Of a stretch of DNA of 64,000 nucleotides, positions 37,516-41,497 are shown piece after piece (position 1 is the stretch's first letter; each line of letters starts with the position of its first letter). Under the pieces are notes generated by a model. That model did not search any database. It was given only the letters and a program-made list of their open reading frames with translations, and was not told the DNA's origin. This stretch comes from an uncultured Chloroflexia bacterium (GTDB lineage: Bacteria; Chloroflexota; Dehalococcoidia; DSTF01; JALHUB01): positions 2,048,001 through 2,112,000 of the forward strand of contig OY969814.1 in the NCBI GenBank assembly GCA_963703345.1. The letters run 5' to 3'. The translations under genes and the position numbers were made by a program.

Positions 37516-38733
37516 CTAGGCGGAGGGAGTCGCCAGCGCGGCCTGGTAATCGCGCCAGCGCTCCTCCAGACGCGGGTCTTTCAGCGTCGCGAGGACGTAA
37601 TCGGTGAACTCACAGCCCTTGACGCCGGTCGGCCGGCCCGTGACGACCATCTTCTTCTCGAACGTGTCGCAAATCTCCAGGGCCATCTCCAGGCGGCGGC
37701 CGCGGTCGGCGAAACCGATGTGATTGAGGAGCATGGCGCCGGCGCGTATGAGGCCGCTGGGGTCGGCGTACTCCACGCGTCCTTCCTCGACCATGCGGGG
37801 CGCGCTGCCGTGAATGGCTTCGAACATGGCGTAGTGGCGGCCGATGTTGGCGCTGCCGGCGGTGCCGACGCCGCCCTGGAGCTCGGCGGCCTCGTCGGTA
37901 AGGATGTCGCCGTAGAGGTTGGGTAGGACGACAACGCGGAAGTGGGAGCGGCGCTTAGGGTCGACGAGTTTGGCCGGGATTATGTCAATATACCAGTCAT
38001 CCCACTCGATCTCAGGGTAGGCGGCGGCAATCCGCCTCGCCGTCTCGAGAAACTTGCCGTCGGTGGTCTTGATTACGTTGGCCTTGGTTACGACGGTGAC
38101 TCGTTTCTTGTCGTGCTTGCGCGCGTAGTCGAAGGCCATCTCGATGATGCGCTCGCTGCCCTGACTCGTCACCGCCGTGAAGTCGAAGGCGAGGTCATCT
38201 GTGACGTGGATGCCGCGGCTGCCCATAACGTAGGCGCCCTCGGTGTTCTCGCGGAAGAACGTCCAGTCGATGCCCTGGGCTGGGATCCTGACGGGGCGAA
38301 CGTTGGCGAAGAGGTCGAGGGCGCGGCGCATGGCGACGTTGGCGCTCTCGATGTTGGGCCAGGGGTCGCCGGCGCGCGGCGTGGTTGTGGGCGCCTTGAG
38401 GATAACGTGACAGCGCTTTAGCTCGTCGAGCACGTCGTCGGGGATGGCCTTGAGCTGGGCGGCGCGGTTTTCGATGGTGAGGCCGTCGATTGTCCTAAAG
38501 ACGATATCGCCGCGCTCCACTTCTGGCGCGAGGATGAACTCGAGGACGCGCTGCGATTCGCGGGAGATGTAGGGACCGATGCCGTCGCCGCCGCAGACGC
38601 CGATGACGAGCGGCCGGAGCGTCGAGTAGTCGACCCAGCCGTTGTCGGCCTTCATGCGGTCGACACGCGTTAGCTGCTCTTCGACTAGGGTCGCAAAGTG
38701 CTGTTTTGCCCGTTCGACGGCTTCTCTATCCAT
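37516..38733 (-). CDS. Isocitrate/isopropylmalate dehydrogenase family protein
   Basis: GDGIGP, LKAPTTTP, LDLFANVRP, RENTEG, TKANV, NLYGDILTD, FEAIHGSAP. Confidence 0.93.
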   Translation of the reverse strand: MDREAVERAKQHFATLVEEQLTRVDRMKADNGWVDYSTLRPLVIGVCGGDGIGPYISRESQRVLEFILAPEVERGDIVFRTIDGLTIENRAAQLKAIPDDVLDELKRCHVILKAPTTTPRAGDPWPNIESANVAMRRALDLFANVRPVRIPAQGIDWTFFRENTEGAYVMGSRGIHVTDDLAFDFTAVTSQGSERIIEMAFDYARKHDKKRVTVVTKANVIKTTDGKFLETARRIAAAYPEIEWDDWYIDIIPAKLVDPKRRSHFRVVVLPNLYGDILTDEAAELQGGVGTAGSANIGRHYAMFEAIHGSAPRMVEEGRVEYADPSGLIRAGAMLLNHIGFADRGRRLEMALEICDTFEKKMVVTGRPTGVKGCEFTDYVLATLKDPRLEERWRDYQAALATPSA

Positions 38734-38810: not shown

Positions 38811-38886
38811 TGGTGGCAGCGGAGGGATTTGAACCCCCGACCAAGGGCTTATGAGTCCCCTGCTCTACCGACTGAGCTACGCTGCC
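38811..38886 (-). tRNA. tRNA-Met(CAT), probably elongator (Ile2 not excluded)
   Basis: GGCAGCG...CGCTGCC-ACCA; anticodon loop CT-CAT-AA; paired G1-C72, so not fMet. Confidence 0.92.
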
Positions 38887-38920
38887 ACTGACACCCACCA
38901 AATGGCTGTTCAGCCGTAAT

Positions 38921-39022
38921 GGCGGGATTTGAATCCGCCGGCGGACAGGCACCCCAACCAAGGGGCTGGGCCCGGGTCGCCTCAGGCGACAGTCCCCTCT
39001 CGCCTTCGGCGAGTACGCTGCC
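38921..39022 (-). pseudogene. Degenerate duplicate of the adjacent tRNA-Met with palindromic hairpins in the D loop, anticodon loop and T arm
   Basis: Collinear blocks GGCAGCGTA / AGGGGACT / AGCCC(C)TTGGTyGGGG / TTCAAATCCCkCC shared with 38811-38886. Confidence 0.85.
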
Positions 39023-39046
39023 AACATGTGTGCTACCGGCGAATCG

Positions 39047-39076
39047 ATGATAGCAAAGGCTTTCTGAGGGTGTCAA
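39047..39076 (-). promoter_or_regulatory. Promoter driving the tRNA-like copy and tRNA-Met
   Basis: TTGACA-N18-TATCAT with extended TG on the minus strand. Confidence 0.75.
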
Positions 39077-39091: not shown

Positions 39092-39508
39092 TCAGAGCGC
39101 GGGCGTCACCTCTGAAGTGCAGTAGGCGCAGCGACGCGCTTCCGACGGTATGTCGCTCAGGCACTCCGGACACTTGCGGACGGTCGGGTCCGGCGGCGGC
39201 TCCTTTCGAGAGCGGGCCAGATAGGCGTTCAGCGGCACGACTATCAGGAAGAAGACTACCGCGCCTATCAAAACGAAGGTGATCGTTTTGTTGATGAAGT
39301 CGCCGTAGCGGAAGGTGCTGTCGTGGATTGTGAAGGCGAGGGCGGAGAAGTCCTGCTGGCCGCCGATGGCCGCGATGAGCGGCGTTATGAAGTCCTGGAC
39401 CAGCGCCGTGACTACCGCGCCGAAGGCGGCGCCAACCACTACCGCAATCGCGAGGTCGACGACGTTCCCCCTTAGCAAGAACGCCTTGAAGTCGTTGATG
39501 AGTTTCAT
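39092..39508 (-). CDS. mscL: Large-conductance mechanosensitive channel with C-terminal CxxC..CxxC
   Basis: FKAFLLRGNVVDLAIAVVVGAAF, YGDFIN, CPECLS..CAYCT. Confidence 0.95.
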   Translation of the reverse strand: MKLINDFKAFLLRGNVVDLAIAVVVGAAFGAVVTALVQDFITPLIAAIGGQQDFSALAFTIHDSTFRYGDFINKTITFVLIGAVVFFLIVVPLNAYLARSRKEPPPDPTVRKCPECLSDIPSEARRCAYCTSEVTPAL

Positions 39509-39649
39509 GTTCTCTCCCTCCTTGGAGATCCGGCCGGCAGGGCGCCGAAGAGCACGCCTGCCGCATCTGAACAGCTGGCCGGCCTGTGCCAAAGCGCGCG
39601 GCTGCGCCACTTGAGAGGGCCTCGAGGCGAGCCTACAATGAATATGCCA

Positions 39650-41497
39650 ATGATAGCGACCAAGCAACCTCTTGTCGAACGCGTGGGGGCGCTACCGAAC
39701 AAGCCCGGCGTGTACATCTTCCGCAATGAAGAAGGACGCGTCATCTACGTCGGGAAGGCGGCGGCGTTGCGCAATCGCGTGCGCTCCTACTTCGGCTCGC
39801 CGCGGAGCATGGAGTCGAAGGTGCGGGCGCTGGCGTCGAGCATCGCTGATTTCGACTACATCGTCACGAACACAGCGCAGGAGGCGCTGCACCTGGAGGC
39901 GACGCTGGTCAAGCGGCACCAGCCCGTCTTCAATGTGCGCCTGAAAGACGACAAGCACTACCCGTACCTCAAGATCGACGTGCAGAACCAGTGGCCGCGC
40001 GTCGAGATAACGCGACGCATCGAGAACGACGGCGCGCGCTACTTCGGGCCGTACGCGAGCGCCAGCTCCGTGCGCAGAACCCTCGACGTCGTCAAACGCC
40101 TCTTCCCCTGGCGTCCCTGCACTGAGGAGGTCACCGGTAGTCGCCCGCGGCCATGCCTGGACTTCTTCATCGGGCGCTGCATTGCGCCCTGCTCCGGCGC
40201 CTGCTCCGAGGAGGAGTACGACGAGGTGATCCGCCAGGTGATCCTCTTCCTCGAAGGGCGGACCGAGAACGTGCTGCGGGCGCTGCGAGCGCAGATGGAC
40301 GAGGCGTCGCGGAACATGCAGTACGAGCGGGCGGCGATCCTTCGCGACCAGATTCGAGCCATCGAGAACGTGTCGGAGGCGCAGGTGACGGCGTACGCGC
40401 GGCCGACAGACGAGGACGTCTTCGGTCTTGCGCGGTCGGAGGGCGAAGCGGTGGCGCAGGTGCTGTTCGTCCGCGGCACGAAGATGATCGGCGGCGACCA
40501 CTTCCCGCTCGACGGGACGAAGGGGGAGCCAGACGCGGAGGTGATGAACGGCTTCCTGAAGCAGTTCTACGAGTCGGCGACTTACGTTCCGCGGACGGTC
40601 CTGCTGCCGCTGGAAATTCCGGAGATGGCGGAAATCGAGGATTGGCTGTCGGAGCGGCGCGGTGGTCGCGTGAAGCTGGTGACGCCGAGGCGCGGCACGA
40701 AACGCCGTCTCGTCAATATGGCGACGGAGAACGCCCGCGAGGCGCTGGCGGTGGCGCGGCTGCGCTGGCTAACGGACTCGGGCAAGACGCAGCAGGCGCT
40801 GGAGGAGCTCCAGGAGGAGCTCAATCTGCCAGCGCCGCCAGGTCGCATCGAGTGCTACGACATCTCCGACATCATGGGCGCGCATCCGGTCGGCAGCATG
40901 GTGGTGTTCGTCGATGGGCGGCCCCGGCGCGCGGAGTACCGTCGCTTTCGGGTCAAGAGCGTCGAAGGGGCGAACGACGTGGCGATGATGGCGGAGGTGC
41001 TGCGACGTCGCTTCAAGCGGGCGGCGCAGGCGGTGGAGGCGCAGGAGGAAGCGCAGGCGGAAGGCTGGGGCGCTCTACCGGACCTGCTCATCGTCGACGG
41101 CGGGAAGGCGCAGCTCAACGCGGCGCTCGACGTGTTACGGGAGGCCGGCGTGCCGCTCATTCCGGCAGCAGGGCTGGCCAAGCAGCAGGAGGAACTTTAT
41201 GTGAAGGACGTGTCGGAGCCGATTGTGCTGTCGCGCACGTCGCAGGCGCTCTACCTGCTGCAACGCATCCGCGACGAGGCGCATCGCTTTGCTGTCACGT
41301 ACCATCGCAATGTGCGACAGAAGGCCGGGACGCGCTCGGCGCTGGATGCAATACCGGGCGTGGGGCCGAAGCGGAAGCAGGCGCTGCTGCGGAAGTTCGG
41401 GTCGGTGCGAGAGATACGGGAGGCGAGCGTCGATGAGATTGCCTCGACGGTTGGGTACACGCGGTCGCTGGCGGAGCGGGTGAAGGAGTACCTCTAA
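39650..41497 (+). CDS. uvrC: Excinuclease ABC subunit C (start could be 39638 or 39644)
   Basis: GIY-YIG (PGVYIF..YVGKA), RIECYDIS, DGGKAQL, IRDEAHRFA, HhH. Confidence 0.98.
   Translation: MIATKQPLVERVGALPNKPGVYIFRNEEGRVIYVGKAAALRNRVRSYFGSPRSMESKVRALASSIADFDYIVTNTAQEALHLEATLVKRHQPVFNVRLKDDKHYPYLKIDVQNQWPRVEITRRIENDGARYFGPYASASSVRRTLDVVKRLFPWRPCTEEVTGSRPRPCLDFFIGRCIAPCSGACSEEEYDEVIRQVILFLEGRTENVLRALRAQMDEASRNMQYERAAILRDQIRAIENVSEAQVTAYARPTDEDVFGLARSEGEAVAQVLFVRGTKMIGGDHFPLDGTKGEPDAEVMNGFLKQFYESATYVPRTVLLPLEIPEMAEIEDWLSERRGGRVKLVTPRRGTKRRLVNMATENAREALAVARLRWLTDSGKTQQALEELQEELNLPAPPGRIECYDISDIMGAHPVGSMVVFVDGRPRRAEYRRFRVKSVEGANDVAMMAEVLRRRFKRAAQAVEAQEEAQAEGWGALPDLLIVDGGKAQLNAALDVLREAGVPLIPAAGLAKQQEELYVKDVSEPIVLSRTSQALYLLQRIRDEAHRFAVTYHRNVRQKAGTRSALDAIPGVGPKRKQALLRKFGSVREIREASVDEIASTVGYTRSLAERVKEYL

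Follow-up and report, generated by a model that had tools for sequence, protein, structure and literature searches.

A hairpin-bearing partial copy of tRNA-Met in a Chloroflexota genome as the probable relic of a tRNA-nested GIY-YIG nuclease/hairpin cassette

Ssn nucleases (SsnA, CDD cd10448) nick single-stranded DNA site-specifically near a hairpin termed NTS, and the main text describing them proposes a mobile-element origin (Chenal et al. 2025, PMC11893778). As in the cassettes described here, a single-domain GIY-YIG gene of about 90 aa is flanked by its own short palindromic repeat; here, however, hairpins take the place of arms in a duplicated tRNA, and tRNA is not mentioned in that main text (PMC11893778). 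T4 SegB is also encoded by a GIY-YIG gene in a tRNA gene cluster and its recognition is tied to a T stem-loop motif, but it is a phage enzyme with a 27-bp double-stranded site, and its abstract mentions neither a hairpin module nor a hairpin-bearing duplicate (PMC2330249). In contrast to SegB, the cassettes here are chromosomal, minimal and Slx1-like.

REP/BIME-RAYT systems similarly pair a dedicated nuclease gene with short non-coding palindromes that are rich in GC (PMC2817692). RAYT is an HUH/Y1 enzyme. The present copies are few in number and cluster in duplicated tRNAs and in the stems of RNAs. A preliminary description of this DNA had suggested looking for co-occurring HUH/RAYT nucleases or reverse transcriptases; the genome concerned (G000, 95.85% complete) gave no match to Y1_Tnp (PF01797) or to reverse transcriptase (PF00078), and the partner that emerged is a small stand-alone GIY-YIG nuclease. 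Integrative elements that target tRNA genes duplicate the att site, so that a partial tRNA duplicate brackets the cargo and one intact tRNA remains. Partial duplication that restores the gene is found here too, but both 5' and 3' duplicates occur and the duplicate bears a hairpin; the units of about 350 bp hold no integrase, the nuclease being the only ORF between the tRNA copies as judged by eye. Palindromic elements of Rickettsia are larger than the hairpins considered here. They share with them the tolerance of palindromic DNA within genes, including one in tmRNA, and differ, in the text consulted, in having hundreds of dispersed copies without a partner nuclease or tRNA duplication (PMC1458961). 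In rRNA genes of CPR bacteria, GIY-YIG ORFs lie in non-intron insertions at stem-loops and were judged, in the main text, not to have spread by homing (Tsurumaki et al. 2024, PMC11270868). Those insertions concern rRNA only, and the same main text mentions no palindromes, hairpins or tRNA (PMC11270868); they are possibly the same family as the tRNA cassettes, seen from another side. Our search of the full-text literature, which covered mostly open-access papers and their main texts, returned no account of tRNA-nested GIY-YIG/hairpin cassettes.

The window analysed is a stretch of 64,000 nt of G000. On its minus strand, upstream of an intact tRNA-Met gene, lies what we call a ghost, a hairpin-bearing partial copy of that gene. 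Promoter (TTGACA-N18-TATCAT), the four blocks derived from the tRNA and all three inserts of the preliminary description were found in their places, as follows.

39047..39076, minus strand: sigma-70-type promoter with extended -10 of the tRNA-Met unit, 11/12 match, shared with genus relatives
39076-39071, minus strand: -35 box, by promoter match
39052-39047, minus strand: -10 box, by promoter match
39029..39037, minus strand: 9 nt, likely an older, decayed 5' tRNA stub, 6/9 bases equal to the tRNA start
39014..39022, minus strand: ghost block corresponding to tRNA positions 1-9, by sequence comparison
38999..39013, minus strand: hairpin 1, with 6-bp arms and CGCC-N3-GGCG core, in place of the entire D arm
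38991..38998, minus strand: ghost block corresponding to tRNA positions 26-33, by sequence comparison
38968..38990, minus strand: hairpin 2 (15 nt, 38990-38976) and 8-nt tail (38975-38968)
38952..38967, minus strand: ghost block of 3' anticodon stem, variable loop and 5' T stem
38934..38951, minus strand: hairpin 3, ahead of the T-loop TTC, at the G53/T54 junction
38924..38933, minus strand: ghost block of T loop and start of 3' T stem
38887..38926, minus strand: spacer in place of the 3' acceptor strand, with a small nested stem-loop by folding
38811..38886, minus strand: intact tRNA-Met(CAT) with encoded CCA, its sequence single-copy in the genome

The ghost duplicates part of the adjacent tRNA-Met gene and carries three hairpin modules. 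Palindromes had been suggested to target loops, and they do sit at the D, anticodon and T arms; what is hit, however, is whole arms or stem junctions and not loops alone. Thus the D loop is indeed replaced, but hairpin 1 takes the whole D arm with it (16 nt exchanged for 15 nt), while hairpin 2 and its tail stand in for the four bases 34-37, which include the anticodon. Hairpin 3 has lost loop bases relative to the ghost of the relative G002, and its slot is used equivalently in other phyla. The spacer is likely a decayed fourth hairpin rather than mutated tRNA, judging from the hairpin that G010 and G012 have at that place. We also considered it as a remnant of the 3' end of a nuclease gene, and the similarity was not significant (p 0.3-0.94). 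Closer versions of the 5' stub at 39029..39037 are present in G003, G008 and G007. A promoter scan gave this single promoter-like match (11/12). The intact tRNA-Met, chosen among three credible CAT tRNAs by identity rules, is presumably of the elongator type; the flanking genes look to us like mscL with a C-terminal Cys-rich extension (39092-39508) and an isocitrate/isopropylmalate dehydrogenase (37516-38733). The only GIY-YIG domain within the window belongs to uvrC (39611-41497).

The resemblance of the ghost to the tRNA downstream, claimed beforehand, goes beyond chance. Gapped local alignment of the 164-nt leader with the adjacent tRNA-Met scored 54.1, a value reached by 0 of 2000 dinucleotide shuffles of the leader (mean 23.1, maximum 40.9) and by 2 of 5000 random genome windows, one of which was the ghost locus itself and the other a tRNA cluster. 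The adjacent tRNA-Met was also the best scorer among the 53 ARAGORN tRNAs of the genome, the next reaching 41.3. Rfam searches at the gathering threshold and at E<=10 placed the ghost in no family, with a weak match to YrlA (E 6.8, 12.8 bits vs 69), so we rejected the reading of the ghost as a Y RNA or known riboswitch. A DNA search of G000 found no second copy of this ghost.

We find it hardly credible that the ghost is an assembly artefact. Contigs of eight sequencing runs were inspected and none spans 38903-38964, the 3' half of the ghost, so the check on this half is indirect; in run X1 contigs are identical on both flanks and none crosses the ghost. Against an artefact stand homologous ghosts in separately assembled genomes and a contig of a relative from a peat metagenome (run X2, record 15), in which promoter and hairpins 1-2 are present and the sequence then runs into the tRNA.

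The family examined comprised 18 genomes, and the Met locus was recovered in all of them but G009, in two of the 17 partly. A ghost or stub lies at tRNA-Met in 13 of the 17, on either side of the tRNA, and the number of hairpins ranges from one to four: one in G016, two in G001 and G004, three in G010 and four in G012, where eight 5'-half ghosts are also arrayed upstream. G003, G008, G013 and G017 have 5' stubs, the G007 contig terminates within hairpin 1, and no hairpin ghost was seen at the Met locus of G005, G006, G011 and G015. Although the copy in the window is decayed, together with its relatives it forms a series of zero to four hairpins at one locus. Such intermediates had been predicted, and the earlier suggestion that some mechanism places palindromes into a redundant tRNA copy is supported.

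The ghost of G002 lies downstream of its tRNA, yet it aligns with the window ghost over all three insert slots. The G000 ghost sits, with the same 5' flank, where G002 has its intact tRNA, as a crossover within the first nine bases would give. Ghosts of G010 and G016 bear the tRNA-Met variant of their own genome. Derived inserts common to several genera suggest long vertical residence at the locus and not frequent jumping.

A functional role as a leader had been proposed as well; as such, or as a decoy, the ghost RNA would compete for the 3' acceptor strand and thereby tune how tRNA-Met matures. The ghost does lie between promoter and tRNA, the alternative fold is just 1.2 kcal/mol above the native one, and the hairpins stay paired across genera. 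Both sides changed in 4 of 12 outer pairs; this covariation is modest, since 19 of 500 shuffles did as well for pairs changed on both sides and the kin compared are not independent. However, within one genus the position, length and presence of the ghost vary (upstream, downstream, stub or absent), and folding of the precursor favours the native acceptor stem with a probability of 0.92 vs 0.08 for pairing with the ghost. Because placement varies and native pairing dominates, the leader is not supported, and we regard it as very improbable; no Rfam family fits it either. Contigs of the RNA runs X14 and X20 cover the tRNA and leave the ghost uncovered, which is uninformative at that depth.

What relatives hold at this locus points to another origin. 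In four genomes (G002, G012, G014 and G016) a gene encoding a GIY-YIG protein of 80-90 aa adjoins the Met ghost. Duplicate, hairpins and nuclease thus stand together at the locus in four relatives, and like cassettes occur elsewhere, in both orders and in tandem arrays. The relatives' proteins are small single-domain GIY-YIG proteins as in Ssn; the window encodes none, and the Met locus of G000 has no nuclease gene. Relatives keep this copy next to a tiny nuclease gene, so the ghost is likely what remains of a very small selfish element, one that nests in the tRNA genes of many bacteria. We consider it probable that it is the nuclease-less remnant of a selfish cassette of about 350 bp, made of a partial tRNA copy, a hairpin and a GIY-YIG gene of 80-90 aa.

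Across the family we found 27 strong matches to short GIY-YIG genes, all single domains (PF01541) of 75-100 aa. Twenty-three lie less than 700 nt from an intact tRNA on the same strand, 22 of them less than 400 nt; the nearest tRNA is upstream of 19 and downstream of 4. Of the remaining four, one has a truncated tRNA-Met on one side and a ghost on the other; the last three are away from tRNAs. Nuclease-ghost units occur in tandem in G011 (three), G006 (two) and G000 (two), and arrays of ghosts only in G012 (eight) and at tRNA-Asn of G000 (three). The nuclease alignment (A1) shows no variation at the motif residues Tyr, Tyr-x-Gly, His and Glu, the closest solved proteins are of the Slx1-family UPF0213, and NCBIfam gave no family above cut-off. 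A tree of 54 rows, which has just 88 columns, groups the nucleases by tRNA type (Met 95/91, Ser 100/100, Val 100/99), and the hairpin sequences differ between the nuclease groups beside them. Exchanges of arm for hairpin nearly preserve length: besides the Met D arm, 15 nt replace 17 in the Val anticodon arm, 17 or 16 replace 17 at Ile, 17 or 15 replace 17 at Pro, and 17 replace 17 at Ala.

These genes could be SegB-like homing genes. The nuclease would then cut the tRNA gene of an empty allele, for instance at a T-loop motif, repair would copy the cassette, and the hairpins, as scars, would abolish the cut sites of the duplicate. Free-standing GIY-YIG genes at tRNA genes are what we find, many inserts bracket or split the T loop, the nucleases cluster by tRNA type, and T4 SegB is itself a free-standing GIY-YIG homing enzyme whose abstract gives a tRNA T stem-loop motif as its recognition sequence (PMC2330249). 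However, an intact target tRNA is kept in cis, adjoining the nuclease gene in the 23 of 27 cases above; many hairpins occupy D or anticodon arms and non-tRNA RNAs; and the 75-100-aa single domains are closest to the Slx1 family, which is set apart from homing enzymes (PMC1564403). On balance homing is unlikely.

The three family proteins away from tRNAs branch apart from the tRNA-linked ones, and two of them adjoin NTS-like repeats. The proteins beside NTS-like repeats served as proxies for SsnA in the tree; they share 25% identity with the profile consensus and branch separately. By analogy, the cassette may work like Ssn/NTS, as a small GIY-YIG nuclease with a cognate hairpin, though it fails the test of the SRM motif: the published degenerate motif had no match in the ghost or in the flanks of any of the 54 nuclease rows, and it also missed the NTS-like loci L051 and L063. 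These two loci, away from tRNAs in two family genomes, are likely true Ssn-type genes with NTS-like repeats.

The link between nuclease and tRNA duplicate extends beyond the family. In a reverse test, 300 genomes of the phylum were searched for the nuclease. A tRNA stands no more than 229 nt from each of the nine strong matches (E<1e-19), as against 3 of 12 weaker matches near a tRNA; eight of the nine have a hairpin-bearing duplicate by eye. Species genomes were also scanned, from DNA only, for a pattern of hairpin plus T loop, in which the T-loop position is fixed by construction. The scan returned 59 loci, in Bacteroidota, Planctomycetota, Omnitrophota, Patescibacteria and other phyla; 33 duplicate the adjacent tRNA, 18 of these with both flanks matching. 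A small GIY-YIG gene lies within 800 nt of 25 of the 59 and none within that distance of the other 34; 18 have no same-strand tRNA called, and 3 are inside called tRNAs of tRNA arrays. No nuclease gene was found at 14 tRNA-anchored control loci of the same order. Viral contigs gave two pattern matches, neither with a tRNA or nuclease. Two minor observations may be recorded here. Palindromes of 20 nt occupy the T arms of ARAGORN-called tRNAs in large Bacteroidota arrays, with no duplicate nearby (L137, L139, L141). In another family of the class, UPF0213-like GIY-YIG genes without a hairpin stand 40-60 nt from tRNA-Ser (L170, L176).

Further ghosts, predicted for the genome and its relatives, were found in the family genomes; in G000, ghosts with hairpins of this kind lie at tRNA-Asn, Ser and Ile, the first two of which also have nuclease genes. 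The tRNA-Asn locus (L040, G000:C1:1810400-1811100) has three identical 103-bp tandem 5' ghosts, then the intact tRNA, and downstream an 89-aa GIY-YIG gene whose stop codon lies inside a 3' ghost, so that G000 itself holds a complete-looking cassette. At tRNA-Ser(GCT) (L039, G000:C1:1147890-1148970) two GIY-YIG genes lie among duplicated promoter and tRNA pieces, and the T-loop inserts have a different tail type. The tRNA-Ile locus (L187, G000:C1:1263520-1263570) has a 5' ghost in the rRNA spacer, with the anticodon arm exchanged 17 nt for 17 nt and no nuclease gene. A fourth small PF01541 match in G000 (C1:1861498) is away from any tRNA and was left out.

Could the hairpins have arisen where they stand? 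Replication slippage and quasi-palindrome correction in an unselected tRNA copy would produce them locally, and the nuclease would be a passenger using tRNA promoters. Template switching can perfect palindromes without selection. Some hairpin ends are like the ends of the replaced native stems (Met D, Ile, Ala), a likeness that local template switching could also yield, and the Met locus of G000 is without a nuclease gene. Against this, the 15-mer of hairpin 2 is identical at the tRNA-Val loci of G003, G004 and G006 and in a T-box of G000, which marks it as a shared module and not a local fold-back. G000 has 56 perfect 6-bp CGCC-N3-GGCG hairpins, of which 7 lie less than 300 nt from a tRNA (0.59 expected, p=2e-6) and 29 are non-coding by the gene calls of a codon model made for this analysis (7.7 expected, p=2e-11); hairpins with other loop lengths show no comparable excess near tRNAs or in non-coding DNA. 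Clean 20-nt inserts with identical flanks are also seen in other phyla. We consider a purely local origin quite improbable, and return to the cassette.

Such a cassette might move as follows. The nuclease would bind its cognate hairpin and, in the manner of SsnA at NTS, nick single-stranded DNA close by. If the host then recombined one tRNA copy with the other, a small circle or concatemer could be freed and might re-enter through tRNA homology. The order would depend on where the crossover falls: tRNA-nuclease-ghost if 3' of the hairpin, ghost-nuclease-tRNA if 5' of it. Either way one intact tRNA would remain, and no integrase would be necessary. Template switching during repair of the nick would carry copies of the hairpin modules to other stems; they would accumulate in the spare copy and in variable stems of other structured RNAs, because hits in a sole working tRNA would be lethal. 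A GIY-YIG hydrolase hydrolyses DNA and cannot itself join it. Hairpin insertion would thus rest on host repair, and this joining step is the weak point of the proposed mechanism. The Met ghost of G000 appears to be eroding through deletion, and the nucleases of the Asn and Ser loci could still act on it in trans. Both nuclease activity and mobility are postulated from genome comparison.

A far-reaching version of this proposal is that the cassette is the smallest autonomous bacterial mobile element, a nuclease of about 85 aa, Slx1-like, with a cognate hairpin of 15-20 nt, which without integrase or transposase would move by tRNA homology, make structure-directed swaps of hairpin for stem-loop with clade-specific hairpins, and rewrite tRNA arms and T-box, riboswitch and RNase P helices. 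We offer it tentatively and would ourselves lean somewhat against it. The cassettes nevertheless offer a likely job and a testable substrate for a large group of unassigned stand-alone GIY-YIG proteins, and suggest a route by which selfish DNA could inhabit essential tRNA loci without an integrase. Nuclease-hairpin pairs of differing specificity could widen the toolset for single-stranded DNA begun with Ssn.

The hairpins may also be a source of variable helices in stable RNAs. Several non-coding copies in G000 make stems of structured RNAs (L182, L184, L186, L183, L185), namely in the P12/P19 region and terminator of RNase P RNA, in the antiterminator region of a T-box and in a c-di-AMP riboswitch; two more T-box-like leaders with hairpin stems were read by eye. 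At the RNase P loci of the family (L188-L205), at least one module copy is in or just after the gene in 9 of 18 rows, at varying places; those in P12/P19 may be native variable helices. One further copy, at G000:C1:1262497, is inside the rRNA operon, probably in 23S rRNA, where the helix may be native. The same core, with 9-bp arms, recurs in a dispersed intergenic repeat at G000:C1:2042072, 2074445, 2137077 and 2156779.
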